64,000 bases of DNA from Raillietiella orientalis. Taxonomy: Eukaryota. A program made the translations under genes and the position numbers. Below, piece after piece: positions 11,279 to 60,863 of the stretch. Positions within the stretch are counted from its first letter, which is position 1. Every line of letters begins with the position of its first letter. The DNA lies in contig JAYWIR010000004.1 of assembly GCA_036172245.1 (NCBI GenBank), positions 1,612,001 through 1,676,000 on the forward strand, in the 5' to 3' direction. A model generated the notes under the pieces. That model was not told the DNA's origin. It ran no database searches and saw nothing but the letters and a program-made list of their open reading frames with translations.

Positions 11279-11541
11279 TTCATCAACCTGTACGAAACAG
11301 GAAGATTGCCTCTAGGGATTTTCATCAACCTGTACGAAACAGAAAGATTGCCTCTAGGGATTTTCATCAACCTGTACGAAACAGAAAGATTGCCTCTAGG
11401 GATTTTCATCAACCTGTACGAAACAGAAAGATTGCCTCCAGGGATTTTCATCAACCTGTACGAAACAGAAAGATTGCCTCCAGGGATTTTCATCAACCTG
11501 TACGAAACAGAAAGATTGCCTCCAGGGATTTTCATCAACCT
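11279..11541. repeat. 42-bp minisatellite, 6 full units plus a partial unit
   Basis: Unit catcaacctgtacgaaacagaaagattgcctc(t/c)agggatttt, head-to-tail with no spacers. Units 1-3 have tctagg and units 4-6 have tccagg. Confidence 0.97.
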
Positions 11542-13929: not shown

Positions 13930-14092
13930 GCCCGCGTCGGAGGCCGTGTGGTTACGGTGGTCTCCGTGCGTGGCGCCATGCGTCGTTCGAATATTCCGAA
14001 CTGAATCGATGCAGTGCGTCGTGGGTTCCGAGTTCATCCCGCAAGATGACGCTGGTTGGCCTACATTCATCCGGCACTGGTAGCTGTTGACA
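13930..14092 (+). mobile_element. tRNA-derived SINE-like head, copy 1
   Basis: B-box-like gttcgaat at 13985-13992. Collinear blocks are shared with the reverse complement of 60690-60863 (gcccg.gt.gg.ggccgtgtgg; gtgcgtcgtggg; gca.gatg.cgctg; gcactggt..ttgacac). Confidence 0.65.
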
Positions 14093-14119
14093 CCGGGTGC
14101 CCCCGATGAGGGCCGGGAC

Positions 14120-14740
14120 AAACGAAAGTCGACCTCCGGGCCCTTCCAGGAATCACGGAGTGGGGAGTTTCCCCTCCGGTTGTGAAGGAACCCCCTCTGT
14201 TCCGGGGGGGGGACCCCTCCGCGTCGTACTGATGGAGTAGGTGTGTCGCCACCACCTCTCCAGAGAGTGGAGAGAAGAGAGCCGATCCCTTCGGGGAAGC
14301 TGAGCCCTTCCGAATTTCGGAAGCGTCCCTTCTGGGTTCTTTTCAGAGGAGTAAAAATAGGAGCGGATCCCTAGCGGGGGATCCCTCCGCAGAAGAAATC
14401 CCAGGATCGGATCCTTTCCGGGTTCCCTTCAGAGAAGAAAGAATGGAGCGGCCCCCCACCAGGGGTCCTCCGGAGAGAATAAGGAAGGAGATTCCCTTCT
14501 GTATTCTCCTTCGGAGACAACCCGGGTGGAAGTGATCTCGATTTCCGGGAATGCCTCCCCAGGCGTGAGAGGAACGGACTCCGAGTCCTTTCTGAATTCA
14601 TAGGGCGGACCTCTCCCAGGGTACCCCCTATCTTGAAGAATTACCCACCCTCGGGTGTCATGGAACCGTGTCGAAGCACTGCGAAGACAGAAAAGAAAGG
14701 ATCATCCTCCGGAGGGGACTCCGGAAAAAGAAAAAAAAAA
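14120..14740 (-). mobile_element. Tx1/L1-like ORF2 (thumb region) fragment
   Basis: Reverse complement aligns by eye with 49700-50200 and 59955-60120 (LSPK..GNPERIRSWDFF versus LSPK..GNTEGIRLWNFF). Confidence 0.6.
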
Positions 14741-14750
14741 ATAGGAGGGG

Positions 14751-14990
14751 TTCAGATCGCCCTGAAGCTGCAGATGCTCACCTACGGGGACCTGAACCAC
14801 TTGGTGTTGCTGACGATGTCTGGGGCGACAACCTGCCTGAGATTCCCCGGCCAGCTCAACGCCGACCTGCGAAAGCTGGCCGTCAACATGCCTGCACTTC
14901 ATGTCAGGGTTCGCCCCGCTGACCTCCCGTGGCAACCAGCAGTACCGCGCTCTGTCGGTCCCCGAGCTCACGCAGCAGGTCTTCGACTCC
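14751..14990 (+). pseudogene. TUBB: Beta-tubulin internal fragment, frameshifted
   Basis: LKL...[35 protein letters not shown], then a deletion of the VPFPR codons, then [28 protein letters not shown] in another frame. Confidence 0.96.
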
Positions 14991-15849
14991 ACGGTTATCT
15001 GTTCATTTGCTCACCGATACAAACGAAAGGCTCGGGGAGCAGTAATCATCAGAGGCTTTGGAAGTGGAAATCTGATGGAAAATCTTTTGCATTTCAAAGC
15101 TTTCACTCCATCATTGGACTGTGCAGTGCCATCCGAGTGTTTCATGCATTTCGAGAGAACTGTTTTCGGATACGGAGCTCCTCTAATAGAAGGATTTCAG
15201 TACATTGATTACTTCCTCGTTTTTGAAATTCATCTTCACACTTGCTGCCGCTTGCTTTACGGGGACTTTTTTTTGAGCATCTGATTCACATCTGCAAGCT
15301 CAAAAATTCATTTTACCTATTCCGCAGAGTTGTACAAAACATCGATGCCTTTTGTACATGAGCTTGGTTAAGCAAGCGCTCCGATTGCTTGATGCATCGA
15401 AAGCATGAGGAGAAAGGTACAGACCAAAATTGAAGTTCTCCTTTGAAAGTCGGTTTGATTTATTCCATGAAATACTGGAGATGAATTCGTTTAGATTCAG
15501 CACGAAGATGCAGGCATCGGCTGGTTCGTTGTATTTTTCTAAAAAAAGCGACAGTGAAGAGTATGTGAGCTTTCTTCGTCTTTCATACGTTTTTTTTTTC
15601 CTTTTCTGTTTAGAGACATACTGGAAAATTTTTTTCCCCTTTCCGCTGAATGGAATTCACAAGATCGATGCCATCATAGCTGCTGCTTAGCAGTGAAGTA
15701 GTCAACGAAGGAAAGTGATTCTGCTTTGAGAGTGAAAGAATCATTACCATCATCAAGTCTCACTTTAAAAATGTATAATTTTGTTGCTGGAAGTCTCTCT
15801 GCTCATTCACTGCCTTTCCTACAACGTTGGATTCATCATGATGGCTGTT

Positions 15850-23099: not shown

Positions 23100-25560
23100 T
23101 GAGATCTGTGGGCAGTAGTGGATCAACAAGAATAAACAAACAAGTAAGCAACATAGTTCCCGAAACAAAAACAAAAAGAAAAGTTCATTTGAAGAGTCCA
23201 TCGACACGCAGGTCGTTTGCTGGGTCAGTCCGGAACGAATGGAAGGGAGGAGGACAATAAATAAATAACAAAACAAATAGGAGGAAGGGGATAGGACATT
23301 TGAATCTCCTTCCTTTCTAGAAACTTGCCGAATGCCGGCGATCCGTCTTGACTTCTTCCTGTAGGTGAGGTCACTTCGCAGCCGTTCTCATATAGGTAGC
23401 TGTCATGCAGCTGATCTCACTTCACTGCTCACGACACTCCAACAAATAGCGGATTGTGACGATGGTGTCCGGTGCAACACATTGCCGCAATCACGGCCCC
23501 TGTCATAACTCCCCTTTTTGCAAAGAATCTCAGCAGTAGGTCTTTGGCAGTGTCCTCAGCGTGCAAGAGTGATGAAACCATCCTGAGCCAGAGCTCCTCG
23601 AGGGCACTGCAATCTAAGAGCAGGTGCAGAAACGATTCCATCGCTCCGTAGCTTGAACAATTTGGGGACGCAACTCCCCTGAAACCACCTGTCTACGCTG
23701 ACTGCAGAAGAATTCCCAGTGCAGAAGCTGCAGAACATCCTGTTTCCAACGCAATGAAAATACCGGAAGTGTTCAAGCACGAAAAAGGTACCACAAGAAT
23801 GGAAATGGAGGGAATAGGTAGACCAGACTGCTCTCGTGGGGTCTTGGGCACTCCAAAGGAGTCCTGCTAACCCTAAAAAGGTAGTATGAACTACACTGGC
23901 GGGATGCTGCTGGTGTTGCATCTTCATTCACAATAACCGGATGTGCTGAAATGAAAGATTTGCACAGAGAACATTTGTGGGATCGACCATGTGGATAAAG
24001 ATTTGGTGTGGGCGCTTGGTTTAGAAGTAGTGGTCTTGGGTGTTAGGAGGAGAAGGAATCAAACTAAGCCAGCGTTGACTCAGATTTAACTGTCTACTCC
24101 AATGCAGAGTCTAGCAGAGCTGATGGGAACGAACTAGCACTTCAACTCACCGGTCGTCTGGAACTCATCCCATGACCAAACAGATTTGTGTCCTCAAATT
24201 AGTATTTCAGAGAATGAAGCTCAGCATTTTCGATTCAGCTTGTCTGGACGAAGATGCTTGAAGAACAGCAGCACCGGCATCGAACCGACTAATCCAATCC
24301 CTTGCAACATAAAAGGTATTTTCGTGATAGAAAACTTGATTTCTAGGCCTGTTTTCCAGGTTGTGGATTACATCCATGTTAAGAAAGGGGTTTGAGGGAA
24401 GTGAAGCCGGGAAGTTCCATTATCTCCACCCAGGCTGCCTGCTCTCTCCGGCTCCTTTTATGCCAGAGCTGTGGTTCCTAAGGTTGCTTTGAGTACGAGA
24501 AGCGACTCATCTGATGCTTCCAATTTCGAAAGGATTTTCTTTCCACTAATGAGGAATACATGGCGGCGGCGAGACGTACGCGTTGCCAATGGGAAGCTCT
24601 TGGAAGTCTTGGCATCTTATGGTGTGGCACGCGGCTGCAGGGATGTTGGAAGTGTCTCAACAGATGTCCGTAGTAGACCGGTAGGGATTTCTGGATGTTT
24701 CTGGAAACCATTTCTTGTCTCAAGGGTCGCGTCTCCTTTGTGCAATTTTCAGGTACTTGCTCCTCAATGCAATTCACAGTACTTGCTCTCCCTCCTTTTT
24801 CAGAAATCTCGAAAATTGTTGATTTCTTTCCCTTTGGATTTGTCATCCAAAGGGAAAGTTGCTCGACCTCCTCTTTGAAGTATCAGGTCCGAGAGGAGGC
24901 TGGATTCTGTTCCAGGGTTTGAGTTGAGTGGTTTCCGTCTGCCTACAGTCATCCCCTTGGTCATGCTGACTCACTTTCCGTGACTCTTCGTGTCCCCACA
25001 TGAGTAGCGGACTCAGCGCTTGATGATCGAAATACAGCATGATCGAGCTCATCATTTCTTTCTCCATGTTCTCTGTCTCTTCGCAATCTTCGATTCTCTC
25101 GTTCTCTGCGTCCTGTGATCCTAGGAATCCTATGGCACTCCCTGGGAGGCCAGATAAGAAGCCAGCTCTCGACACTTGCTCTTCTCCTTCCGTTGTCTTC
25201 CTCTTCTAGTGCCGTTGCTAAGTCATCAAAGTGATGACGTCTTGCAAGATTCCTTTCCCTTCTCTCTGAAGCTCTGGGTCTATCTTTGAGCTCCACATTG
25301 TCTCCGGAACACGCAATGATCGGAGGCATGTAACTCTCAATGTTTCAGGGTGATTCTCGATATGGGTCACCAATTCACTGTTTTCCTTCGTTGCCGGTGT
25401 CGGAGCCACAGAAAGGAACGCTCCAGATATCCACGAGAGCTACACCGCGAGGACCATCAAGAAAAACATCACGCCTGAGAGCATCCCCATTAGTCCATCA
25501 GTGCAATTCAGTACCTCTAAGGCTTTGTCGCCATGCAAATAATAGTGTCCGTTTGGGTTG
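23100..25560 (-). mobile_element. Degenerate Tx1/L1-like ORF2 with CCHC finger and 3' UTR
   Basis: Clear finger ..MESFLHLLLDCSALEELWLR at ~23580-23680 and a 3' UTR homologous to other copies. Weaker upstream APE (YFDHQAL) and RT (LQG..PVLLF) traces. Confidence 0.6.
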
Positions 25561-35898: not shown

Positions 35899-38400
35899 AC
35901 CCGGCTACGCCGTGACGTTTATTTTAAAAAACAAACTACGAGAGGGGAGGAGTACCCATCAAAAACAAGAGATGCCAAAAAAAAAAAAAGTTCATTCGAG
36001 TTAACCACTGGCACGGGACCTGCTTCCAAAAACTGAAGGACGGAGAAAGGGGACAATAAATAAATAAAAAAAGACGGGAGGGTGAGGACAGGGGTCTTTT
36101 GTTCATGACGGTCCTTCCTCTTCCTCTCTAGAAGCAGCGTTGGATGGTGGCGATCTCCCTGGAGACTTCTTCTGGCAGATGAGGCCACCTTGCTGCCGCC
36201 CTTATGAGGGCTACTGCCATGCTGGTGGCCTCTTTTCGCTGCGAAGCCCGACTCTAACACAATGGCAGCCCACTATGATGCGGATGCAACGGACTGTTGC
36301 TATCCCGCTCTCTTCTTCAGTCCGGCTCCGGTGAAGAAGCATCTCAGCAAGTCCAAAGCGGTGCCCAACAATTGTCGGAGTCTCCGCCACAAGTCCTCAA
36401 GGTCTCTGCAGTCCAACAAAAGGTGCGGGAGCGATTCCATCGCCACGCACCTTAAACAGTTCGGGGAGGTAGCTTCCTGGGAACCAGGAATCCGCGCTGA
36501 TTGCACGGGAAATCCAAGTGCAAAAACAGTGGAACATCCTGTTGCCCGCGGAGCGGGAACACGGACGTGTCCACACACAGGGGAGAGACCATGAGTTCTT
36601 CGGTGAGCACACCAAGCAGGTCAGGAAAGGACGCAGAGGACTCCCCTCCAGCGAACAGTAATTCCTTCCCGTGCACCTCAGAGTTTTTTTTTCTTATTTA
36701 TTTTTATTTTTGTTTGACCCCTCCCCCTCTGCTGCCGAGGCGAACCTCGTAGGCCTGCGTACCAGTTACTCGGCTGGTTCCGAGCATTTTCGGACGATGT
36801 AGAGCGGATGACTCTACATATGTATGTTTCTTATTTTGATGATAAATATCCCGCTGTGACCGTGTGTTAAAACAAAGCATGCCACTCCACTGAAGAAGTC
36901 CCTTTGTCCGGAAGCGAGTAGTGGCGGCATTCAACAACTCGCCTGCAGCTTGGTGTCCGGATGGTAGGCTTGTTCGCTTCCGGTCCCGCCCCGTTGTGCC
37001 GTCACCCGCGCGAGTGGGACACTTCTGCCGCTTCACTGGGTTTCGAGTCAGCGCAGAAACGGAGTGATGGCTCTTCTTTTCCAGATCGCCAAACCATCCG
37101 AACGCGCGTTCCGCTCCCTCTCCCTGGCTTTTATTTGTTGCTGATCTAGACGGGTTGCCCTGGAAACATTTGCCGCACAAATTGGTGGACATGGGCAAGC
37201 CTCTCTGCAACCCATGTCCCCTGTGGGCTTCTTTGTTTTGGTTTCGTCTTTGGTGCAGGCCTTCAGTCTGCTGAAGAGGCGCTCCAGGTAGCGGGAGAGT
37301 GCTTCTTGATGGCAGCCTTCCATTCATTCAGCGAGGTCTTTCCTTGTTTCCTACATCCTCTTGATGGCCTTCCTTCTTTAGCTTGTCTACCCTGCTTCAG
37401 TGGATAAAGGCGAGCTGCCTCGGAGCGGGCCCATAGGCACCTTGCATTGGGGACCGCCGCTGCCTTCCCCTCCCAGAAGTCCTCCTGAGGTTCCTTCCCC
37501 GCCTTCCACGAAACATCCGCCATTTGCCCCGTCGGTCTTTGCCCAGCGTGGGGCAGCTGAAGAGTGGCATTTCTGTTTCCGCTTCACTGCAATGAGTTCA
37601 GAATTCATCTTCTGAGTCCTTGGACCAGCTCTTCAGTTTTCCCTTACGTCCAAGTTCGCACGGAGGAATGGAAAGATTCAGGGCATCGGGTGGTGAGTTG
37701 GCTTCCCACAAGGCACAACTGGCTACTGTGGCGCTGGTTTCTCTGCCCTTGGTTCCAGGCTCCTTTTCTTTAATGGTTCGTTCTCCACTTTTTCTCCTCT
37801 CGTCTCGCCTTCCTGGCTTGCTCTTTGCCTATTTTTGGCCCAATGGTCTCTTCGGCCCTGATAGAACCTGCTTTCCCTGCCCCGGATCGCTTCGCTTTCC
37901 CTATAGAGGATCACGTAATGAGTGTCTGATTCCGAATTCGTGTGCTTCCTGGAGAAGAATTCCTTTTTCGAGAGGAACATCCTGCCCTGACAGAAGCTTC
38001 GACTGAAATAAGATCTGATGTTTTTCGATCCAAAATCTGCTGCCTATCGTCCTTCCTTCAGCCATCTTTCTGCACCACATCAAAGAAGGAAACATTCTTC
38101 GAAGCATCATGAGTTGTAATCAGAGTGATTGGATGGTGCCAGCGGATGAGCAGATGGCGTACATTCTGAGATGCGCCAGCTGCTCAGCAGTCCCCTTGGA
38201 GGAATGAAAGTGAAAGAGTGCTTCCGTGGTTCCCGAACAGATCCGGGGATTTTTGGCATATCTGACCGTGAGACTCCTAAGTGTAGAGAGGGGAACGGAG
38301 CAACTGAAAGTGCGAATGGAAACTCCAGGGTGGAGGGCGGTTATCTTGCGGTAGAAAGTTCATCCTCCAATTGCTGACTAGATTGCTGACTCGATCAATT
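35899..38400 (-). mobile_element. Degenerate Tx1/L1-like ORF2 from RT to the 3' end
   Basis: FTFIPPRG..SWRIS, EGRTI, FWEGK..WARSE, CLRCVAMESLPHLLLDC, then a 3' UTR ending aataaacgtcacggcgtagccgggt. Confidence 0.72.
36680..36870 (+). mobile_element. Isolated Tx1-like 3' UTR fragment nested antisense in another LINE
   Basis: Homologous to 60500-60697 (gctgccgaggcgaacc..ctgcgt.ccagtt..cggc.ggttcc..tgtatgttt..taaa..tccc). Confidence 0.7.
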
Positions 38401-39231: not shown

Positions 39232-40175
39232 GATTCTGTTGAAGTAGCAATAGATCCGTTGATCTAAGCCATTCAAAGTCACAGATCTGCAGACGAGGAC
39301 ATCCATGCGTTGATTTTTTTTCGAGCAGTGACAGGCAGTTTTTTTCTTGGTGAGTGAAAAGGTTCCAAAACACCACCGCAAGCAGATATTTGGCAGACGC
39401 CGCCACGCCTCTCAATATTCCCAAAGGACTCCTTCGGTGGAGCGAACTCCCGAGTGTGCCCCTCGAAGAACTTGTGGTTTCTCCCTCGTGCGCGGACACT
39501 TCTGTGTTCCCCCTTCCATGGAAGCAGGACGTCATCATGCTGGTGCATTGGGGTCTCCATTGCAACCAGCGCAGCAACGTTCTTTCCGGGGGAGTTGCCT
39601 CCCCGGACTGCAAAAGGTGCGGAGCAGCAGGAACGCTCCCGCACCTGCTTTCGGACTGCGGTGTCCTCCAAGGACTGTGGCGGAGGCTGACCTCAGCTCT
39701 CCTGCTCCAGGGGGACACCGCAAGGGGATTTGATGCGCCGCTTCTTCACGCCAGGCGGCAAAGGTATCATTAGGTGCGGTGGTCGCAACGGTCTGTTGCC
39801 CCCGCTCCATCGACAAGGCCCACCGAGAGCGGGAGAAGCTGGCGATTCGTCGTGAGGCCACCGGAATAGCCGACGAGAACATGAGGTCGGCTGCCGAGCG
39901 GCGTCATCTTCCAGAACACACAAGGAACGAGATCTCCGGCATCCAACAAGGATTCTGAAAGGAAGGAACGGCCGAAGTCCCCTGTCCCCAATTCTCCCCA
40001 TATCTTATAAAAAATATAAATAATGTGCATTTGTGGTCCCCTCCCTCCCGTTCTGGACTTTCGGATTTACCGAGCTGCATGTCGGGGAGCTCTCCCTCCG
40101 TCCCTCTGTACCCTTTGTCTGGAAACTTTTGTTCTCGGATAGTTTAGCTATAAACGCCCCGGCGCACCCGGGTGA
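39232..40175 (+). mobile_element. 5'-truncated Tx1/L1-like LINE (CCHC finger and 3' UTR), copy A
   Basis: FPLPWKQDV..HWG..CKRCGAAGTLPHLLSDC..LWRRL; ends ataaacgccccggcgcacccgggt. Confidence 0.8.
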
Positions 40176-40210: not shown

Positions 40211-40455
40211 AGGTCCGTGAGGGGTACAGACACCATTCCAAGATTTACTTTTAAATTAGTATTTACATTCTTCTACCGTTAGGGGGTTACACATCCTTTG
40301 AGCCAAATGTGGTGAGCGTCGTTGATGAACGAGAATTCCGTGTTCAGAAGCCACGCAATACCGGAGAAACAGCTGCTGCAGTTAGCATAAACCATGCATC
40401 ATGATGTTTTCTGGATAACCAAATCGAAAAGATTGTTTTGCATCGACTCACAGCC
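40211..40455. repeat. 245-bp near-identical inverted duplicate of 44808-45052
   Basis: Reverse-complement match; one mismatch seen by eye. Confidence 0.95.
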
Positions 40456-40479
40456 AAGTGGCAGACAGTGTCAACTCCA

Positions 40480-41524: not shown

Positions 41525-42422
41525 CCCACCCGGGTGCGCCGGGGCGTTTATTGCTAAACTATCCGAGAACAAAAGTTTCCGGACAAAGGGTACAGAGGTA
41601 CAGAGGGAGGAATCCCCGACACGCAGGTCGGTATAACCGAAAGTCCGAAACGGGAGGGAGGGGACCATCAATAAACATATAAAAAATATAAAAAAAGATA
41701 TGGGGGGAATTGGGGACTTCGGCCGTTCCTTTCTTTGAGAAAGGTCGGCTGCCCGCTCGGCAACCGACGTCATGTTCTCGACGGCTATTTCGGTGGCCTC
41801 ACGACGAATCGCCAGCTTCTCCCGCTCTCGGTGGGCCTTGTCGATGGAGCGGGGGCAACAGACCGTTGCGACCACCGCACCTAATGATACCTTTGCCGCC
41901 TGGCGTGAAGAAGCGGCGCATCAAATCCCCTTGCGGTGTCCCCCTGGAGCAGGAGAGCTGAGGTCAGCCTCCGCCACAGTCCTTGGAGGACACCGCAGTC
42001 CGAAAGCAGGTGCGGGAGCGTTCCTGCTGCTCCGCACCTTTTGCAGTCCGGGGAGGCAACTCCCCCGGAAAGAACGTTGCTGCGCTGGTTGCAATGGAAA
42101 CCCCAATGCACCAGCATGATGACGTCCTGCTTCCATGGAAGGGGGAACACAGAAGTGTCCGCGCACGAGGGAGAAACCACAAGTTCTTCGAGGGGCACAC
42201 TCGGGAGTTCGCTCCACCGAAGGAGTCCTTTGGGAATATTGAGAGGCGTGGCGGCGTCTGCCAAATATCTGCTTGCGGTGGTGTTTTGGAACCTTTTCAC
42301 TCACCAAGAAAAAAACTGCCTGTCACTGCTCGAAAAAAAATCAACGCATGGATGTCCTCGTCTGCAGATCTGTGACTTTGAATGGCTTAGATCAACGGAT
42401 CTATTGCTGCTTCAACAGAATC
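41525..42422 (-). mobile_element. 5'-truncated Tx1/L1-like LINE, copy B (inverted partner of copy A)
   Basis: 41791-42422 is the reverse complement of 39232-39863; the 3' UTR is homologous but diverged. Confidence 0.8.
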
Positions 42423-42963: not shown

Positions 42964-44807
42964 CGTTAATTTCGCAAATAAATTCCATTGCATTCTTCCA
43001 GAGGTGGAATGCTTTTTAGGTTCCACTTCTTTGCATTCTATCTAGTTGGGGAGTGAAAGAATCATTATTTAAATCATCGTGCTTTTGTCTTTGTTTTTTT
43101 CTTTTTCAGTGGTCCAAACGCTGGTTTTCTCACCAAATGAAAGAAAGCAAAAATGAGAGTATCAGTCCCGCCTTCCGAGACAAACTCAGTGATCAATAAC
43201 CAGGTTGATTCCCTTGTCAAATATCAACACGAGAACGAAACTGGCTGAACTTTAATCCGCAGATGCAAAACATTAGTTGAGTACAAGTTGAGCTTCCTAT
43301 TCGGACGAATTACACACATGCATGCATGCATCAGAGCTATTAAATGCTTACTTAACCAGAGTTATTGATGACCAACGGCTGCTTAACATTTGGGAACGGA
43401 GGTATTCGAAGATACAGCAATGATGCGTCCAAACATGTTGCTGGAATACGGTTCTGTTCAAAAGTCTTTGCTCAGACATCTAGAGGTGCGTTACCGTGGA
43501 AAGGGAAGAAAACTGCGTGATACATCCACGTTCTTTTTTTTCTCCATCCACTCGTGAATTACAGCTCGGCCTTTTCTCCCTGTTTCCACACTCTCTTTCC
43601 TTTGATTAGTCTTTGGCTACTGACCTTTGTCATCCTCGCTTAGCTCGTGCTTCTGAGAGGTAACACTTCTTACCTTGCCGTGTCTGATACTCGAAAATAA
43701 CCTCCGGAAGTGCATCTACACTTTTGATCTGAAGAAAGGAGCGAGGCTAAAGAATCTTGTCTCGCTTTCCTGACCCCCTAATACTCAAGTATTTCCAGAA
43801 ACGAAATCCCTCTGGGAGACGTTCTCCTGAATAAGTTTCAACAAAATCTTGAAAGAAATCTGTTGGAGTTTGTTGCGTTGAACTTCTTCAAGCCCTCGGA
43901 TCCTCATGGTGTTGAAGTGATGCGGAAAATACGAGGGATCTTAGCAGAATCTAGGTCTGCAACTTTCTTTTGCAAGAGAGGAAAGCTTCTGGGCCACCTG
44001 AACAAGTAAGGGTACAGAGGAAGAAAGGAGCTGTTGAGAGCAGATGGATGCAAGCAACGTTTTTCCTTGTTTTTTTTTTTTTTTTTCTGTTGTTGTTTCG
44101 AAGCAACCGAAAACCGTCATTGAATGCAATACAATGTAGGATTATCATCCGAAATGATGGGTCACTGGAATACTCGAAGACCGATGCCAAATGCTCGTGC
44201 AAGCCTTTTGAAATAACAGAGAGGATCCTTCTGAAACATCTTCGTGCCAGCAGCATCAGCGTCGCTCAGCACAAGGAAACAGAAGGAACGGCCCAAGAGG
44301 GCCTTAGAGAATGAGGGGAAACCAGGTCCATGGCATCAAAGAGAACGCAAAGATCCTTGTCGTGTAGAAAGTGTAGGACACGCAACGCATTTAGCACATC
44401 GAGTTCAGGGAGCCCGCGCAATTAGTCAAGGATAACGCGTTTTCATATGAAAATCTCACGGCAGAAATAATTGCCGACGGCTAAATATTCAAATGAAAGC
44501 AAAGCAAGTTGACCTGCCAGTCACGGAAATCGTGCAGGAGTTTTGGATGGAAGCAAGCGTGCAAATGCTTGGCAACCGCTTCCGATGCACGGAAAGACAA
44601 AGGCTATAAGCACTTTGGTCGAACCGAAAACAGTGAGGATTGTACTGATAAAGTGAAATGTGATCCCACTTAGATTAAATCTGCACCGTGCCAACATCCA
44701 TTCGTTATCGGTCCCCACTCAGAACCAGCATTCCAGTATTGATTGACTGGAAGTAATATAAATCCGGGGGAAAAGTAAGGGAACTGCGTAGCCTATCCCG
44801 TAGCCTC

Positions 44808-45052
44808 GGCTGTGAGTCGATGCAAAACAATCTTTTCGATTTGGTTATCCAGAAAATATCATGATGCATGGTTTATGCTAACTGCAGCAGCTGTTTCTCC
44901 GGTATTGCGTGGCTTCTGAACACGGAATTCTCGTTCATCAACGACGCTCACCACATTTGGCTCAAAGGATGTGTAACCCCCTAACGGTAGAAGAATGTAA
45001 ATACTAATTTAAAAGTAAATCTTGGAATGGTGTCTGTACCCCTCACGGACCT
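44808..45052. repeat. 245-bp near-identical inverted duplicate of 40211-40455
   Basis: Reverse-complement match. Confidence 0.95.
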
Positions 45053-46200
45053 CACCTACCTCAATTAGAAAGGGCATCCGCCCTTTCTAATTGAGCTGAA
45101 GAAACCAATTCATATGCTTAGCTGCCTCGTTTATTGATTAAAGAAAAGAAGAAAAATCAAATTTTCGGAATGCACATTTTTCAGATGTCCTGTCACTTTT
45201 TCGAGGAAGATTCAGCTCTCCATCTAAGGATTTAGAGCAGGTAGTCTTCTTAATGGAAACACAGGAAAACAAACGACACACATAGCAGGAGATTGGTAGC
45301 TTCATGGAAATCCAAAAGAATCTCATAATCGTTGTTGATTTTGTAAGGACACAATAAAAGATGTGTTCGCCTAGCCGGGAGAAATCCTCGTCACTAGGCA
45401 AAGTGGGCAAAAAAAAAAAAAAAAATGGGGGGGGGGGGATGTTAAACAAGATTCCCGCTAAGTTGAAACAAACAACACACTCCTCGATATTCAAACATAA
45501 ACACTTGCGAATGGGCTCAGGAAAGTGTGAGGAGCAGACACCCAAAAGTGCATGATGGGAGGAAAATTCTCAAATCCAGAGAGGTTGCCCCGAAACACTC
45601 AGAAACACGCTGCATATAAATGAACAGCAAAATGGTCTCCATTTAAAAACTTTTCTAAGGTATTCATGGGTTGTTTTCCGGAAATCTAAAAATTCTCACA
45701 GTTGCAATGTACAATACCTTTGGGGATCAAGGAATTTTCTCTTCGGAATAAGAAACTTTAAGAATGATTTCATCGGAAGCTCTCAACTTGGCGGAGAGTT
45801 TGGCTGACCAGCAGCTACCAGTTTTAAAGATTGTCATTTGTTTCCCAATCGTATGCGTCTCCGAGGTGAACCTGTAGCATCACAATAGTCAACCTCGAGA
45901 TTCATGTGATGAATGAAAACATCAGAATACTCGTTTAGCGCAAAGGCCTCGTAAAGCTTCAGCTTATTGGAAATCCAAATTCAAACCATCGAATCCATTT
46001 CTATGAGTTCATTGTCCGTAAGCATATTCGGATTGGCAATTCTGAGTATAGAGTTTTCAGCGAGCGACAAATTTCAGGAAGAAGCTCTCCAAATACAAGA
46101 AAAGAACCCCAAAGAGAGACTGCTGTTTTCCAGTTACCGAAAGAACAATACCTTGGGGTATTTAGTGCCGCAAACTGGCAAACACATCGTGGCACGTGGA

Positions 46201-46820
46201 ATGGCTTCCAGCCTTGAGAAAGTCAGCAGCATTGCTGGTACGATGCCCAAACGCTCGATCCACGGGTAAACCACGACATCTTTATGATCAGGGAGAAACA
46301 GAGGTGTGTTCAAAGATGCTGCAAGAGCCTCATAAAGACGCGATTCCTTTCCGAACCCCATGATCGCCGGGAATGAATGAGATCTGTGTTTCCCCTTCAA
46401 AGAGAAAAACGCACAAAGGACTGCAGCATGTTGCACTGCCGCATCCATCCAGTTATCGGTTCGTGAAGGAGCGGACTTGCACCAGGAAGGGCGTGGCGAA
46501 GATGCTGGTTACCCGGGACCTTGAGACGAGCCTCCGCTTTTCTGCTGTTTCCCGTTCTGGTTCCACCTCAAAAGACTCCCTGATGCAACTGGGCTGGACT
46601 TTAGGCAAGAGGACACTTTCGGCACAGGAGGCAGCAGCAGCGAAGAGGGGAAAGAAAAGCTCCCGCTCCACTTGGGGCGGGGCACCTTCCGTTTCTGTTC
46701 GTGGGATCGGATGCTGCACGCGACGCGGAGTGGGTCCTCAGAGCATCATCACCTCTTCCTCGAATCGCCTCCATGGAATCTGTCCCAAGGAAAGAAAGAT
46801 GGAGCCTCAGAGATGCTACA
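46201..46820. repeat. Direct near-identical duplicate of 58618-59254 (probably decayed LINE ORF2, minus strand)
   Basis: Identical apart from about three substitutions and one 17-bp indel seen by eye. The LINE origin is tentative. Confidence 0.93.
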
Positions 46821-47999
46821 ACAAACTGAATGGAAAATTGCTTGAATAGCTAAACTTTTTGGAATATTGTGTTCTTTTGAAGATTTCTGGATTGGAAATC
46901 AGCTGTTTTGAGCTATAGGGAAGGTTCTATGGAATGTACACGTGAAAATCTATTGAAAGCAGCTCGTTGGCCAGACTTGAATGGCATCATCCTTTTCAGC
47001 AACCCTTTGTACCAAGATCAAATGAGCTCATGGGAACAGATGGAGTTTAAAGATGTAAATGAGACAAGGAAGAGTTCCATAAAGGAACCTTAGGAAAATT
47101 TGCATCCTGCGCCACTGGATAATGTAGATCGTCTTTGTTAAAAATCTGTCATCTGAGCCACGACGTTCTCAAAAATGCAAAAAAGTTGCGTCAGCATCTG
47201 CATATTTTGTGCATTTTGTCGATATTATTTCTGTGCGAGATCCGAGCCAGAAGACTTTTTTATGCACGACCTCTGAGTGTACCTCAGGAGACATTTCAAA
47301 GATAAATATTTTGAGGAGCAAATTACAGAAATCTCACGTGAACATGCTGGGTTTGACACACAACAGTTCCTCAAACAAGAGTGCACGAGAATCGTGGAGA
47401 CTGGACAAGGAAATTACAGAAAGGGCACTTGCCTATTCCGGTGATTTAGAGATACGGAATTTGTAGGTTTCTGTTTTCAATAGTCTATCTCGGGGGTGTC
47501 GAGATCTGTCATCATCTAGATGCTACCCTGGTACTAGCACGGAAAGCACCTTTGCGGTCATCTGTGGATACTGGAAGCTTCAACCGGACTTGCTATTCGG
47601 CTCCAGTGTATATTTAGAGATGGCTGCCATGAACATAAAAGGAACGCTGTTCTCTTGTCGCTCGGAGAACTCAAGTATGAAATCCCCAATCCACTGAGAA
47701 TAATCGATGAAATATAATCTGGGAAGCGCGATTTGAGTCTTTGAGAGGATAATTCAAATCACAGTGAAGAATGATGCTTGAGAGCGAAGCTAATGGCGCT
47801 GCTCGCATGTACAGAAAGTACTCTGTAGGCAACTCCTCAAACACTGCGTCACGGAGCCAACTGCAATCAATGGAAGACATGACGAACTAGTGACCCAGAT
47901 CCAGCGAGCTACTGTGTAACAGGGAAAGTTGGTGGCCTCCCGTCGGTCTGTCAGACCTAATGCTCCAGGAAGGAGGAGAAGCAATCATGCAAGAATCAC

Positions 48000-48559: not shown

Positions 48560-50260
48560 GAGTACCAACTAATGAGGACCGACTTCCTCTCATGCCTTCC
48601 CAGTCCGAAAGAAAGCCAGAAGGAAAAAGCAAAGGAAATTCCAAACGCGATCCTGGACGTGCTGCAGAGACTCTTCACTTTGAAGTCTTCTGGATGAAGG
48701 ACGGCTGTAGGGACCGAACTGAAGGAAAGAAGTTTTCGTGAATCATCCTCTAGATGAAGGAGTTGCTTTCTGATTCTGCGTTTATTTTGTCAGTAAAGGA
48801 AGTGATGAGAAAGGAACTTCAGGCGCGTCTTCCATGGAAACGATGAACTTCGAAATCCCAAGTGACAGCAACAACAACAATTTCAACTTTTTGTGTGCAA
48901 AAATGGTCAATCAGAACACCTTTGAATGTATGCTAGGGTGGGAAAAGGAAACGGAAAGTGCTCTCATCCCGATGGATGCAAAGCTGATGCCTCAGGAGCT
49001 TGGCGTCTGCTTGGCTTCCTGCACCAGAAGCATGCAAGGGACTGCAACATGCCTCAGAGTCAAGGAAAACAAACTGCCTGAGGAATCCGCCGAGCAGAGT
49101 CAGGTCTAGAAGGAGGGCGCAGCACTCCGGAAAGCTGCGGCTCGGGGAGGCGCCGCTAAATCGCACGCTCTTCCGTCCACTGCGTCGGACGCCGCGAAAG
49201 TCTGAATAGTCGGCACGGGGGAGAGCGGAAAGAATGTTCTGGCATCTGGAACAAGAGAGTTCGCGTGCACTAAATGAACACCCATGTCGAATATTGAGGG
49301 AACGATCTTCACGATTTCTGCCATCTCCAGACGGTCTCCCTGTTCTGTCCTATGAGGTCATGGTGTCATTTCCAAGCTTCCTCATCAGTTTGTGCAAGTT
49401 TCCTTGGACGCTGATGTTCCGGGAGTTTTTACTTTTGGGGGAAAACTTGCTCCAGTATATGCGTCCAATATGTGCCACGGCTGTATCATATGTTAGAGGC
49501 GAGCCCAAGGCGCCTTGTCGAGGTTTGATTTCGGGATCATCAGCATCCCATCAATTCGGATCACAGCAAACTTAGAGAGCCAAATATCAGGATTCTATGG
49601 CCCAGAGGGTCACTTGAACATCCTTCGTCGACAGGAAAGAAGCGAGGTCTCTGTATTTGGTCTACTTTTCTTTCTTAAGGAGTACTGAAGAACCGTTCGT
49701 CCCCTTGAGGGGTGAGGGGGTCTCATGGAGCTCTTTTACACCATTGACGCCATCAGAGGGTGCATGTAACTTTTCAGTTTAGGGGGAAACCCCCAGAGGA
49801 GCTACCCTATGAATCCAGGAAGGCTTTGGAGGAAGGAGTCCGTTCCTTCTCTTACTCTTGGTAGTGAGCCTTCGACCTGGTTGTCTCCGAAGGGAATCCC
49901 GAAGGGAACCTCTTCCTTGTTCTTCTGGAGGGCTCTCCCGGAGGAGATCACCCCTCATTTCTTCCCCGCAGGAAACACGGAAGGGATCCGCCTCTGGAAT
50001 TTCTTCTCCGGAACCGCTTCCTGATTCCTCTTCTGAAGAGAATCCTTAAGGGACGCTTCCAGATTTCCCTGAAGGGCGCTTCCCGGAGGAAAGAGAGCTT
50101 TTCTGACACTTTGGAGAGGCAACTCCCAGGAGGGTATCAACCAGATCCATGAAACGCGATGCAGGGTCCTTCCCCGAGGCGAGGGGGAGTGGCTGTCCAT
50201 TGCAGGAATGAGCCTATTGGAGGAAACCGCTTCCCAGTTCCATTTCATTGTCATCTTTGA
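48560..50260 (+). mobile_element. Degenerate Tx1/L1-like ORF2
   Basis: SPDGLPVLSY (SPGPDGLPxEFY-like), RPIC, and a thumb-like LFFWR..EGIRLWNF segment shared with two other loci. Confidence 0.6.
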
Positions 50261-54649: not shown

Positions 54650-56103
54650 ATTTTTCAAGATGGTGGATGGATGTTTTCACCCGCCTCACATTTTATATAG
54701 GGAAGGAGAAGGAGGAGGGGAATAAAATGCTTGAAACAATCTAAGAGAGGAGCTCTGCTTTTCGATTTCAATGGCACGCCGCCGGAGGACGTCGCCCACG
54801 TGGTTGCATCCCCCGTCCCGGTTTGCACTTGGAGATGCAATTTTTTTCTAATCCTCCTCAACTTTTCGAGTTATCGTTTCGATTCTCGTGTCACTTGCCC
54901 ACGAAAGAAATAGCCGAGGAAGAAACAGGGATGATCGATGAGGATCATTTCCTAGCATCACAGAAGATGACTGATAATAACCCAAAAACATGTGAAACTG
55001 CCCACTAGCGCCTCCGACGAAAGAATGAGTACGTCCTTTAGAAGACAGGTGTGTATTACACATGGAGCAGTCCTGAAGAGGAACTGCACGGGCGTAGGTG
55101 TTGATAAAGGAGTTGTGAGCCGCATACGGGTGCAACCCAGCGAGTTCCAAGGGAAGACAAAAGTCCGCTTCACAATCTTTATTCAGAGAGAGCACTGGTA
55201 AAAAGAGAGAGTGGACAACGATGAGATCAGGATGAAAGGTGATGGCCCAGGGTATGAGTCTTACCCGGACGATGAGAGACGGGAACGATCCGCACGCGGC
55301 ATCCTTACGGAAAATTCGTTCGGACCAGAGGACTCCAAGATCGGTGAGCTGGGACGAGCAGCCGGCAGTGTTCCGGAAACACCGCAGCTCTTCTGATGCC
55401 TCCCTCTCCTAGGGGAGAGGAAAGCAGCATCCTCTCCTTGTTCCCGCTTCGATGGAAACAGGATGTTCTGCTATTCCTGCACTGGGGCTTCCAGTGCATC
55501 AGCGCAGACACCTGGTTTCCGGGGGAGTTGCCTCCTCAAACTGTCTCAGTTGCGGGACGATGGAATCGCTTCCCCACCTACTTCTGGACTGCAGTGTTTT
55601 GCGGGAGTTATGGCGAAGAGTTGCTTCGGCACTCCGTCGTCCCCAGGACACTGCCATCAGCCTGCTGCTCCTTCAGCGAAGGCGGACTGAAGAAGGGCGC
55701 TGTGATGGCAACACCATCCGCGCCATCGCGACGGCCCGCCGTAAGCTCGAAGGGAGTTCGCAGCGAAAGGACGCCACCAGGATAGCCGCCAACCTTATGG
55801 AGGCAGCTGCAAGGTGGCCTCATCTTCCCAGAAAAGTCGCCAGGGAAGTCGCCATCGTCAAGCGCCGCTTCTAGAAAAAGAGGAACATACGATACCAAAG
55901 ATCCCTGTCCCCACCCTCTCCTGTTTTTTTTGTTTATTTTGTGTCCCCTCCCTCCGTTCCCTTCTTTTTTGAAGCTTGCCTGCGTGCCGGTGGTTTTCCG
56001 GGTTGAACTTTTTGTATGGGAGTTTCTTGTGTCTTGGGGGGGATACATATCCCTTCAAGTTTGTGGTTTGCTCTCTGAATAAACGTCCCGGCGTGATCGG
56101 GTT
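54650..56103 (+). mobile_element. Internally deleted Tx1/L1-like LINE with CCHC finger and 3' end
   Basis: DFN and WRCN APE traces; FPLRWKQDV..CLSCGTMESLPHLLLDC..KRRF*; ends aataaacgtcccggcgtgatcgggt. Confidence 0.78.
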
Positions 56104-58617
56104 CAAACCTCTCCTTGGGGAAAATTCGCAGTTCTCCAACAGATCTTGCTAGTGTTCCGACATTCAGAGGGAATGGTGGAAGGGAATCCTATCCGAGTTT
56201 CGCGAGAGCGCGAAACACCGTTCGGAGCTGCCCGGGAAGCAGCTGTCACGACCAAGGTTTTCAGGACTCTTTCACTCGGAAGAAAAGAGCCGTTCTAACC
56301 AAACCATCACCAGATGGTACAGAAATGTGATCTTTACGATATGGGCAGAGTCGATCAGATTTTCGAGTTGTCATCATCCCAGTATCGCAGCAGTCGCTAA
56401 TTCAGCCTTTTTTAAATTAATATCATTGTTCCAGCTACCCTGGGATTTCTCTTAATCACGAATCAGAATGAAAAAAACTGTGATGAGGAGCGACGGACCC
56501 ACCAATGGAGCGTCAAAAATGGAAATTTTCTCCAAGCATTTCCTATTATTTTTCAGGAGCATTCTCCCATCAAGAACACGCACACCAATAATCTAAGTTG
56601 AGGTTTCTCTCTGCTGTTGGGAATGCTTTCCATGGGTCCAGTGCCAGCTGTGCAGTTGTTCAGTCTTTGGAGTGCTCTCTCTCTCATTGCTGATTGGAAG
56701 AACTCATTTGATATGGCTCAGAACCTCAAATGAAAATTTTATTTATTGGATTGGAATGGAGGATAGAAAGAACTTTCTCTAGTCAAAAAAAAAAAAACAT
56801 GGCTCCCCGAAAGAAATGAACGTTTCAAGTAGCTTGAGTCAGCTTCCGTTGTCAGTATGAAAGCATCCTGAAACGTATCTAATAGCAAAGCACTGGGAAA
56901 CGCAGTTGTTAATTTATGATGCATTTGTATTCTAATAATGCATCCTCGTGTGTGGGTCAATACTTGAATCATGAAAATTACTAGACGGTTAACATGATTC
57001 GCATTCTTTTCTTTCCCACGCATGAACAAGGGAAAATTGATGTAAATCATTTTTCAACATTTTGTCCTTCAATCATACAGTTTCACGACGTTCCGCTAGA
57101 TGTCACGAATCCATTCAGTGTTTAAAATGGAGTTTGACATGGCGGCAGGTCACAGCGAACGGCCATCGAGTTGCTAACGGTTGAAGAGGACGCTGTGCGA
57201 AATATCCATAAACTCCTAAAATACCAAGGGAAATTCAAGCCAAAGATCGATCGCATCACCCGACTTTGACAAACAAGAAGTTCATGACGAATCCTTCAGC
57301 ATAGGAAGCGTCAGCTACTGCCTTGTCATACTTCTCCATCCTGCCAGAATCCATCCAGAGGCACATAAAGCAGTTTTGATCCAGGAGGAAAATCCATGCC
57401 TTTCTCATACATAGCAATGCTAGATCGCACCAGTTTGCTCACAACAGAAGCACCACAAAGCAATACCAAGCCAAAATGTCATCACCGCTCTGGGCTGTAT
57501 TCCTACATCCACTATAAGCTCTGGCTTTTCTCTGTTCGATCCGATAGAGAATGCTATTATTGGAATAAAGTCCAGGTTAGATGAAGAGGTGAAGAGTGAC
57601 CTCAACAAATAAGAGGAAGACAAGAATGGCATTGCTGACTAGCGACAAGCTTTTTGTTGCTTACGTGTGAATTTACACAACTGGTTTCAGGGGGGCTCTG
57701 GACATTTCTCTGCTTACTTGGAGCGCTCCTCGCCTCTCTTCATGGTGCTTCCTCCAATTCCTGGCTTTCCTATAGTGAGAGAAGATTGCATGGATTCTCC
57801 AGCTGGCTTTCCTTGCAACGTGGGCCGCATATATGTCACTTGAGCACAGGATACACGCAGCCACCTTCCGGTGCCTCAGCTGCATCAGCTTCTTCCTTGG
57901 TATTCCTTGATTTTGTAATACTTCTTCGTTACTAGGATCCCATGCTCCCAGAAGGTCAACGATGAACGCGTGTGCGTTGCTTTACTTTCCACCTTTTCTC
58001 AGAAGTAGTGCTACGTCCTTGTGTTCTCCTTCCTCGTTCTTCCTGGCTGTGTTGACGTCCTCTTCTCCATTTTCTTATGGGCAGCAGACGTGTAGCACAC
58101 ACGTCCGGTTTCCTTTTTGCGTGACCAGATCAGGTTTTAGGATGGAAGCTGTTCCTGGAACTCTCCGGTTCCTTGATACAAGACTCCACTTTGCTTCATC
58201 CACTGAAGCCTTTCTGATTTCCTGAATCGGGTCGTGGCATGCCATGGAGAGAGGAACGTGTTTCTTGCATCCATTTAGTATGTGGAGCAGCGTCCTCTGT
58301 CCTTTTCGGACTACCGACAAGGATACCCCTATTCTAGACGTGAACAACGTGCAAAAAAACAAATATGATGACTAGGTAGAAAAATATCTGACAAACTGAC
58401 TCACAGAAGCTCGCCATACAGAGACTGTGGCTGCTGGAGCTGTTGCTATAAATAGCAACAGTTCCGGCAGCAAATTCTTTTCTGTTGAGATTTCTAATCA
58501 AGTCATTAGTTTTCGCGTCTATAGAAAACTTGAAGTGTGACAAATAACAGTTAACGAATCATCAATGACTGTCGATAGCAATAGTTCGTGATCAACAAAT
58601 ACATCATGACATATGGG

Positions 58618-59254
58618 ATGGCTTCCAGCCTTGAGAAAGTCAGCAGCATTGCTGGTACGATGCCCAAACGCTCGATCCACGGGTAAACCACGACATCTTT
58701 ATGATCAGGGAGAAACAGAGGTGTGTTCAAGGATGCTGCAAGAGCCTCATAAAGACGCGATTCCTTTCCGAACCCCATGATCGCCGGGAATGAATGAGAT
58801 CTGTGTTTCCCCTTCAAAGAGAAAAACGCACAAAGGACTGCAGCATGTTGCACTGCCGCATCCATCCAGTTATCAGTTCGTGAAGGAGCGGACTTGCACC
58901 AGGAAGGGCGTGGCGAAGATGCTGGTTACCCGGGACCTTGAGACGAGCCTCCGCTTTTCTGCTGTTTCCCGTTCTGGTTCCACCTCAAAAGACTCCCTGA
59001 TGCAACTGGGCTGGACTTTAGGCAAGAGGACACTTTCGGCACAGGAGGCAGCAGCAGCGAAGAGCGGAAAGAAAAGCTCCCGCTCCACTTGGGGCGGGGC
59101 ACCTTCCGTTTCTGTTCGTGGGATCGGATGATCTGTTATGGTGTGTGCTGCACGCGACGCGGAGTGGGTCCTCAGAGCATCATCACCTCTTCCTCGAATC
59201 GCCTCCATGGAATCTGTCCCAAGGAAAGAAAGATGGAGCCTCAGAGATGCTACA
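58618..59254. repeat. Direct near-identical duplicate of 46201-46820
   Basis: Same sequence plus 17 extra bp (atctgttatggtgtgtg). Confidence 0.93.
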
Positions 59255-59501
59255 GCAAGAAGTTTCCGAGAAACTAAGCGATACAGAACAGGGATGCTGT
59301 TCCCAAACTTCCAAGATCCTGAAAAATACACTGAAGGAAGAAAAAGAATGAAAGGGATCTTGTGGTTTAAGACAAACGAATTCTTCCTTTCTCTGGACTC
59401 AAGAAGGTTTCGGAGGAGTTCCTCTTGTCGCATGTCTTCTCTTGCCTCTTGTTGGTTTTAGCAGGGCAGGGTGGGCGTGGGCGACAGCAATTGCACGGTG
59501 C

Positions 59502-59876
59502 TCATTTTGGACTCGTGCACATGGTCACCGCTTTCGTGCCTTCCGAAACGGCGTGCTTGGGCAGTTCCCCAGGCAACAGCAGGTGGACTGCCGTCTGCAC
59601 CTCCCGGCTGGTGATGGTCGTGAGCTTGTTTTAGTGAGACAGCCGGAACGCTCCTGCAGCGATGCGCTCGAAGATGTTGTTCACGAAGCTGATCAGGATC
59701 GACATGGCCTTGCTCGAGATGCCCGTGTCCACGTGCACCTGCTTCAACATTTTGTAGATGTAGATCACGTAACTTTCCTTCCTCTTCCGCTTTTTCTTTT
59801 TATCTCCCTTTTTGATGTTTTTCTGAGCTTTAACAGCCTTTTTCACCGCCTTCCCACTTCCGGACTTGGGAGCCAT
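59502..59876 (-). pseudogene. H2B: Histone H2B pseudogene, full length with one premature stop
   Basis: [102 protein letters not shown] replaces the Tyr of HYNK, and many conserved sites are substituted. Confidence 0.97.
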
Positions 59877-59954
59877 CTTACTCTTCTGAACTTCTGCTAC
59901 GCACTTTCCACGAGGAGAGAAAGACGCAGTTCACACCACGCTCAGCAACTATCA

Positions 59955-60690
59955 GCGCCCTGGTTGTCTCCAAAGGGAACCATCTCTTCTTCGTTCTCTC
60001 CGGAGAGATTCACTGGATACTCTTCACTTCTTTTCCCAAGGGAATCCGGAAAGGATCCGTTCCAGAATTTTCTTCTCCTGAGGGAAACCCCGAAAGCAGC
60101 CGGCTCCTCGATTCCAAAAAGGATCCCAGAGGGCGAGATCCGATGTGGATATCCGCAGATGTGTGACTTGTAGATGAGACCAGATCCCTGCCAGTCAACG
60201 TGGCATCCGGTTTCCAACAGTGCCACTTTTTGAAGCTCCTCTTCCTGCACGACGCCCTCATGCCAGCCGCATCCCTAGCAGCACTGTGCTGCCCCCTCGG
60301 AGGGACCGCAGCTGCATGGAGCAGCGCCAGGACGAAAAGGACGCCATTTATTTTGCTGTCTTCTTCATGAGGACAGTGTCAAGATGGCCCCATCCAGGAA
60401 CCCTGAAACAGGAACTTGCCGGCATCCTTACAAGGATGCAGAGGATGCCTCCAGCATGCAATGATCTCTTCCCGAACCCCCCCCCCTCCATTTTTTGACT
60501 GGATGTTTTTGTTTTATTTTTTTCTTTTTGTTTGTATCCCCTTTCCCTATGCTGCCGAGGCGAACCCTGCTGGTCTGCGTGCCAGTTCCCGGCAGGTTCC
60601 TTCTCGTATCCGTGAGTAACGTGGCAGGATCAAACGTCCTGCTACAGACGTGTATGTTTATTTTGTAAGTAAACGTCCCGGAGTGACCTG
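59955..60690 (+). mobile_element. Tx1/L1-like 3' portion (thumb, C-terminal region, 3' UTR)
   Basis: cctggttgtctcc.aaggga block shared with ~49877; LHDAL motif; 3' UTR shared with 36680-36870; ends gtaaacgtcccggagtgacctgtg. Confidence 0.65.
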
Positions 60691-60863
60691 TGTCAACCAG
60701 TGCTGCATCCGAAGCCCACAAGTCAGACAGCGCCATCCTGCTGGGAGAACCCGAAACCCCACGACGCACCCTCCATTTCTCGGTGTCGATTTTTCTTCCA
60801 GGTGGGATTCGAACCTGCATTGCTCGGTGTCACGCGAGGAGCCACACGGCCGCCAACACGGGC
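60690..60863 (-). mobile_element. tRNA-derived SINE-like head, copy 2
   Basis: B-box ggttcgaatcc at 60805-60815 (minus strand); homologous to 13930-14092. Confidence 0.7.

Follow-up and report, generated by a model that had tools for sequence, protein, structure and literature searches.

SINE-like repeats beside a beta-tubulin piece and a histone H2B retrocopy, and a LINE that lands in an older SINE subfamily

Results

The window, by which we mean the whole 64,000-nt stretch of DNA analysed, contains two loci at which a SINE-like repeat is followed by sequence from a host gene, beta-tubulin at locus 1 on the plus strand and histone H2B at locus 2 on the minus strand (Table 1). A preliminary description had read both as the same four parts in the same order, a tRNA-like head, a CCCGG hairpin, an antisense piece of the thumb of a Tx1 LINE and, after an A-rich linker, a sense gene fragment, and had proposed either a Pol III-headed non-autonomous element or a LINE insertion process by which abundant host mRNAs are captured again and again.

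Table 1. Parts of the two SINE-gene loci in the window
Feature	Position	Strand	Remarks
Locus 1: SINE-like repeat, younger subfamily S1	13930..14709	+	5′ end complete; without the family's terminal hairpin and poly(A)
Locus 1: A-box-like motif	13941-13951	+	pattern match to box consensus
Locus 1: B-box-like motif GTTCGAAT	13985-13992	+	pattern match to box consensus
Locus 1: GGCACTGGT	14073..14081	+	insertion spot of the L1/Tx1-type LINE in older SINE copies; single copy and empty here
Locus 1: linker with short A run	14710..14759 (50 nt)	+	weak likeness to SINE body repeats, p 0.06-0.24
Locus 1: beta-tubulin, broken internal piece, about codons 215-297	14760..14991	+	sense; inside one parent exon
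Locus 2: head of older SINE subfamily	60691..60863	-	83.7% to old-head majority
Locus 2: L1/Tx1-type LINE 3′ end (about 450-470 nt), 5′-truncated	60225..60695	+	antisense to SINE; 76-83% to five long copies
Locus 2: motifs bounding the LINE, GCACTGGT and GGCACTGT	60703-60696; 60224-60217		duplicated GCACTGGT-type motif
Locus 2: rest of old SINE body, internally deleted	59956..60224	-	profile matches; stops at about S1 position 603; 76.6% to old-body majority
Locus 2: H2B retrocopy: 5′ UTR, full CDS (59876-59502) with premature stop, 3′ UTR	59444..59950	-	88% to parent-like gene L067
Locus 2: possible SINE body continuation past H2B	59390..59435	-	suggestive only, p 0.03

The B-box-like head described at locus 1 was confirmed on the plus strand, with a sharp start at 13930 and both an A- and a B-box-like motif by comparison with the box consensus. 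A search with this head gave 1726 candidates in the 210-Mb genome, 40 of which were scored and 29 copies besides locus 1 retrieved; these were 84-88% identical over the head. In all 29 the alignment begins at the same first bases and extends into the body, in most of them through it, and none continues into tubulin. The head, the supposed hairpin and the body at 13930-14709 are one SINE-like repeat of ~800 nt, without a LINE-derived piece. The stretch that had been called an antisense Tx1 thumb is SINE body: Pfam in six frames gave no match, and comparison with five long LINE copies gave no significant similarity (best blastn E 0.012, best tblastn E 0.011), so that an origin of the body as a LINE remnant was rejected by Pfam and for the one LINE family compared. 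A similar motif (gttgacac..ccgggac) does occur at both loci, but the CCCGG hairpin was rejected as a structure, its folding being no better than that of shuffled sequences (z -0.05 and -0.25). Nor is the A-rich linker the normal poly(A) tail of the family, which comes after a terminal hairpin that is missing at both loci.

The SINE-like repeat is short, non-coding, dispersed and of high copy number, with thousands of copies in one older and one younger subfamily and a density of about 6 copies per 200 kb of arbitrarily chosen DNA. The older-subfamily head gave 983 candidates, and the majority sequence of the older body is 70% identical to S1. Both heads, and likewise both majority sequences, carry A/B-box-like motifs at +12 and +49 to +59, which form a putative internal Pol III promoter by the box consensus. 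ARAGORN found no tRNA genes in the window, RNA-family scans were empty, with no Rfam tRNA match at locus 1 at E<=10, and relaxed ARAGORN on the SINE majority sequence produced nine scattered calls that were taken as noise. Complete copies end in a hairpin (folding z -4.2) followed by poly(A); this hairpin occurs within 2 mismatches at only 7 places genome-wide, the majority of copies stopping raggedly 5′ of it. All seven matches to the tail pattern were SINE copies, and the search, with one LINE family compared for a shared tail, found no partner LINE. Clear target-site duplications were present at 4 of the 29 other S1 copies, with 2 further doubtful cases. The family resembles tRNA-derived SINEs (SINE2): its head has A/B-box-like motifs, its body is non-coding, its copies are dispersed and number in the thousands, the few complete ones end in poly(A) and some are flanked by duplications. 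It differs from them in the absence of a tRNA match by ARAGORN or Rfam, of a detected tail-sharing LINE and of the terminal hairpin from most copies.

Several SINE copies had features of their own. Target duplications of unusual length, from 54 to about 70 nt, were seen at L005, L028 and L165 (L numbers denote loci in the genome), and at L028 about 55 nt separate the aligned SINE end from the duplication. Behind the SINE at L029 and L013, a pyrimidine run and AG lead into an open frame, which on inspection looks like the end of an intron and the exon after it; the frame at L029 may belong to a potassium channel. Two SINE tails about 1.9 kb apart (L228 and L230, G000:C49:253-255 kb) share a 40-nt downstream flank in opposite orientation, which suggests a local inverted duplication. 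A third copy of the same SINE in the window, at 49667-50193 on the minus strand, is old and 5′-truncated, and no gene piece was seen behind it.

The sense beta-tubulin piece reported at locus 1 is real, as judged by parent-gene alignment and by a match to beta-tubulin in PDB (E 9e-19). Of 232 bases aligned with an intact beta-tubulin gene on contig C19, 211 are identical (90.9%), and the piece has two deletions of 17 nt in total. Elsewhere in the genome, a poly(A)-ended copy of the same gene (L203) indicates that its mRNA was copied; as the locus-1 piece spans no intron, it is a putative RNA copy. No more tubulin sequence was found upstream or downstream of 14760-14991, and insertion of the SINE into a longer tubulin copy was ruled out by the absence of tubulin from both flanks. 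Poly(A) is absent after the piece, and no second copy of the SINE-tubulin junction was found. The locus-1 SINE is 93.6% identical to the family majority sequence, so that the age proxies of the two parts are alike, which fits a single event. Its end variant, GGATCATCC, is common to one other SINE copy only (L082), and a search for a SINE subfamily with this end matched, as SINE ends, only the two copies from which the pattern was taken.

Older SINE copies can carry an insertion at the motif that is empty at locus 1. In long copies, the inserted LINE is an element of ~5 kb with an RVT_1 match over the cut-off (E 1.4e-13), an Exo_endo_phos match under it (E 4e-4) and, seen by eye, a CCHC-like ORF1 and a C-terminal Cys motif; its Tx1 label is tentative and comes from motifs. 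An older-subfamily head followed by the same antisense LINE sequence was found in 29 other copies, a set biased towards filled sites by a query that included the start of the LINE insert. An unbiased set was therefore drawn with an internal LINE piece as query (2059 candidates, 40 scored and 20 examined, one being the query's own locus), and the SINE-head junction was present in 18 of these 20 LINE copies, the other 2 being without the LINE 3′ end. On the opposite side, 30 of the 31 loci scoring for both junctions return to SINE sequence within 3 nt of GGCACTGG, a count that omits loci scoring low for either junction and that shows where the SINE resumes, not how often. Insert length among those 31 loci runs from 36 to 3250 nt, with 4144 nt in L129. 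The target motif is duplicated on both sides of the LINE, over about 8 to 50 nt, and is single at empty sites, which together with the poly(A) ends of complete SINEs led us to reject the reversed reading of a LINE with SINE-like ends and internal deletions. L129 and L132 each have a locus-specific variant in both copies of the duplication, and truncation points of the LINE vary between copies. These loci show an L1/Tx1-type LINE lying antisense at one motif of the old SINE. Its junction on the target side is fixed, the duplication is short and the extent of 5′ truncation varies, which is what separate target-primed insertions would give. At L227, a young SINE lies inside an older SINE-plus-LINE. 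A short piece elsewhere in the window (36627-36781), 74-77% identical to the 3′ end of this LINE and with no adjoining SINE profile match, perhaps belongs to a sister family.

Locus 2 holds such an insertion. The related head at 60863 on the minus strand is present as described and belongs to the older subfamily, and the antisense LINE piece that follows (60695-60225) is genuine and absent at locus 1, so that the two loci do not share the same four parts. It consists of the last ~450 nt of the LINE, the thumb, for which it had been taken, being >1.2 kb further in. The sense H2B copy was also borne out, its CDS at 59876-59502 matching Pfam Histone with E 1.4e-16. Its 3′ UTR stops just short of the histone stem-loop and there is no poly(A), and the parent-like H2B gene (L067) has both a TATA-like box and the stem-loop; by its 3′ truncation without poly(A), and with no promoter, the copy is a probable tailless retropseudogene. 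No filler separates SINE and H2B. Identities at locus 2 are 84% for the head, 77% for the body, 89% for the LINE and 88% for H2B, and the lower conservation of the SINE parts fits later, separate insertions of LINE and H2B, though ages estimated from a majority sequence will come out too high if several masters gave rise to the old subfamily. A resumption of the SINE after H2B, which would make H2B a nested insertion, is suggestive only, three tests ranging from suggestive to null: one gave p 0.03, in a second the score of 59390-59435 was reached by 9-46 of 400 random controls with the old-body profile and by 74-152 of 400 with S1, and in the third by 438 of 2000.

Other repeats were seen in the window. 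Just beyond the H2B copy, a direct repeat of about 660 nt (46179-46824 and 58596-59258; 96% identity, 12.4 kb apart) could be a pair of long terminal repeats or have arisen by local duplication. Inverted repeats form two pairs, 39232-40174 with 41527-42422 (91% over about 940 nt) and 40211-40458 with 44805-45052 (99% over 248 nt), and are possibly a DNA transposon or a local inversion. Another dispersed repeat has five copies (23532-23797, 35899-36612, 39454-39721, 41933-42200 and 55435-56102) of 66-74% identity, and a 42-nt tandem repeat at 11279-11541 (6.3 copies, 99% matches) has a unit length that is a multiple of three.

If the head, an antisense LINE piece and a captured gene moved as one Pol III-driven unit, gene sequence would be expected behind other copies. 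In the 330 nt behind the SINE, a six-frame scan found a eukaryotic Pfam match in none of 24 other S1 copies (the 29 less L010, L011, L016, L029 and L030), the tubulin control being detected; Pfam misses UTR pieces and short fragments, and the first tubulin piece was itself missed. A single bacterial match (E 0.008) fell on a T run. Among 98 loci chosen by SINE, by LINE or arbitrarily, one (L041) had a histone or tubulin piece. Composite mobile elements of the SVA/LAVA kind show the same junctions in many dispersed copies, and no recurring SINE-gene junction was found in dispersed copies here: three SINE-H2B sense junctions differ from each other in both breakpoints, LINE truncation points vary by copy, and locus 1 has neither the LINE piece nor a second copy of its junction. 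Against this, two look-alike loci lie in one 64-kb window and the order SINE-LINE-H2B recurs at L041, but we give a cargo-carrying family almost no credence. The first proposal, a Pol III-headed non-autonomous element, suits the head and body as a high-copy SINE-like family with a putative Pol III promoter but is wrong for the cargo-carrying composite.

Histone copies proved abundant. A search for H2B gave 73 candidates, and the 40 loci examined comprised 7 genes with the stem-loop and 33 copies without it; the stem-loop is missing in all 33 of the latter and poly(A) is present in 1. Where both ends were readable, many H2B copies begin in the 5′ UTR and stop just before the stem-loop. Many copies of histone mRNA in this genome run from close to the start of the mRNA to a point just short of the stem-loop, with no poly(A). 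One H2B copy (L071, G000:C32:1645339-1645703) has an intact frame and 98% identity to a gene, without the stem-loop or the gene's upstream sequence, and is a young retrocopy. Histone genes themselves occur as tandem units of about 4.3 kb with H2B, H3 and H4 (L074-L076, L091 and L186; G000:C8:5.22-5.24 Mb), and a search with short H2A motifs found no H2A in 10 kb of these units.

Contacts between SINEs and retrocopies were counted in 53 H2B, H3, H4 and tubulin copies, the number left after removal of 21 gene loci, 7 duplicates and 3 seeds; a few H3-like members may be true genes with introns. Six of the 53 had a SINE piece within 60 nt, at 7 ends in all, where the 13 in 140 kb of the same flanks would predict 0.6 (Poisson P 3e-6), with a cut-off that was picked after data inspection and with approximate retrocopy ends. 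Pure coincidence, in which SINE ends and retrocopy ends are unlinked in a repeat-dense genome, gains something from the post hoc cut-off, from the SINE density together with dozens of retrocopies and from 0 of 7 actin-like loci with stops having a SINE in their 0.8-1.1 kb flanks. Contacts so far above background indicate that plain chance is insufficient, and we consider this explanation very unlikely. The excess is real in this sample; its cause can be given only in outline.

Two of the seven contacts are in sense tandem (L082 and L165), two are head-to-head (L068 and L177) and three are tail-to-tail (L085, L143 and L177). L177 (G000:C13:41500-45000) is a dense insertion hot spot, in which antisense SINE sequence, a head on one side and a tail on the other, encloses an H2B copy and further SINE and LINE scraps come after. 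A weak form of the proposal that a LINE process picks up host mRNAs survives in the many histone copies and in SINE contact at ~10 times background, but the mixed orientation speaks against its strong form. Mixed orientation and separate duplications of the parts, both named in the preliminary description as outcomes that would count against a composite, were found; gene fragments at background frequency, a third such outcome, were not, abutting being above background.

Target-site duplications were sought at both window loci, around the whole and around the parts, and none was significant (p 0.12-0.80); an enclosing duplication scored p 0.12 at locus 1 and p 0.25 at locus 2. Duplications are hard to see in this SINE family, and their absence at the window loci says little because so few of the other S1 copies show a clear one. 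The flanks of the locus-2 H2B gave p 0.20, and scores were low in most H2B copies. At L165, the SINE alone is flanked by a duplication of ~70 nt (p 5e-4), and weaker SINE-only matches were seen at two further loci, L143 (p 0.013) and L161 (p 0.04), the latter lying 114 nt from an H3 copy. At L082, a SINE then H2B in sense, 12 of 15 bases agree where a duplication enclosing the two parts would fall (p 0.008 for a narrow search window, 0.23 for a wide one), and the linker is a scrap of SINE in inverted orientation (p 0.001); the H2B coding part is 94% identical to its gene and the SINE 86% to S1.

These data bear on recurrent template switching, in which the reverse transcriptase would start on a host mRNA and jump to SINE RNA, giving a sense SINE-then-gene fusion as one insertion at both window loci and in a few percent of retrocopies. 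Such fusions would account for two RNA copies joined in the same orientation at both loci (the RNA origin of the tubulin piece being putative), for five sense-tandem cases in total (the two seeds, L041, L082 and L165), for the similar ages at locus 1, for the junction without filler at locus 2 and, at L082, for the possible enclosing duplication, the inverted scrap and the rare SINE end found also at locus 1. However, only 2 of the 7 unbiased contacts are sense-tandem, and one of these, L165, has the SINE-only duplication; H2B appears younger than the SINE at locus 2, and the identities at L082 differ in the same sense; at L041 the SINE may have landed within an old H2B copy (a colinear 5′ part lies upstream, p 0.08); and poly(A) is absent from the 3′ end of the whole, after tubulin or H2B. 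Chimeras of this kind have been described in mammals and in a fungus (PMC2104539; 10.1101/2025.02.02.635956). Overall, we regard recurrent switching at both loci as unlikely.

Discussion

Neither window locus, in our judgement, belongs to a family of composite elements; each is probably a one-off stack of retro-insertions, nested or occasionally chimeric. In the sequence of events that we favour, the endonuclease of the LINE would cut the SINE motif and each LINE copy would be primed there separately, and a relaxed reverse transcriptase would copy both SINE and histone RNAs from internal priming sites immediately 5′ of the hairpins at their ends. At locus 2, the old SINE would have come first, with the LINE and H2B added later and separately. 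At locus 1, the young SINE and the tubulin piece of similar age would most likely stem from one event by template switch, or else from a later insertion at the SINE end. The excess of contacts may arise because one break or junction is used more than once, irrespective of orientation.

The habits of the LINE are consistent with those of the target-preferring Tx1 clade, in which one survey places Tx1 in Tx1D of Xenopus, Tx1-Mar in Mariner-N4_AMi and Tx1-9_AMi in Harbinger elements, and names DNA transposons, LTR elements, microsatellites, satellites, U2, U5 and 5S among the targets of Tx1-type elements (PMC4494074). The LINE described here is alike in its APE-type endonuclease and reverse transcriptase, its use of one site in another interspersed repeat, its short duplication and its 5′ truncation, and it differs in that its target is a SINE and its clade label, drawn from motifs, is tentative. 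A dispersed SINE as target is a new form of this known target-preferring habit; a literature search, limited for subscription papers, Repbase and supplementary target tables, found no LINE targeting a SINE.

The histone copies recall tailless retropseudogenes, described in PMC5322556 as 3′-truncated RNA copies without poly(A), histone mRNAs included, that are explained by internal priming and are known for therian L1, with 51 5′-truncated histone cases. The copies described here are alike in their 3′ truncation and lack of poly(A), and differ from the therian cases in coming from an invertebrate-like 210-Mb genome, in that many H2B copies have a 5′ UTR and in duplications that are mostly undetectable. 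Chimeric retrogenes form a second point of comparison: the sources report U6/L1, Alu/L1 and WEIRD/MGL/Mg-SINE fusions, formed in sense by template switch and in antisense by twin priming (10.1101/2025.02.02.635956; PMC2104539). The window loci are like them in joining a 5′-complete small RNA or SINE to another RNA copy. Chimeric retrogenes, however, are flanked as a whole by a duplication and mostly end in poly(A), features that were not detected at either locus of the window, where the tubulin piece, moreover, is internal.

A broader scheme, which is possible but doubtful, would unite these observations. The reverse transcriptase would prime 5′ of terminal RNA hairpins and often copy two RNAs per break, by template switch in sense and by twin priming in antisense, so that about 1 in 10 histone retrocopies would be born fused to a SINE; locus 1 and L082 would come from one switch site, and a second LINE, in some thousands of copies, would have the SINE as its only landing site.

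A gene-capturing composite, if true, would have opened a new way of shuffling genes. It is unsupported, and the loci are hence ordinary in that part. A LINE with a dispersed SINE as its target, seen on copies from many contigs chosen regardless of the SINE, extends the known targets of Tx1-type elements, and the SINE motif could serve as a defined site in assays of the endonuclease. Tailless histone retrocopies, plentiful in this invertebrate-like genome and in contact with SINE ends more often than chance predicts, also provide a usable set for weighing template switching against insertion hot spots outside mammals.
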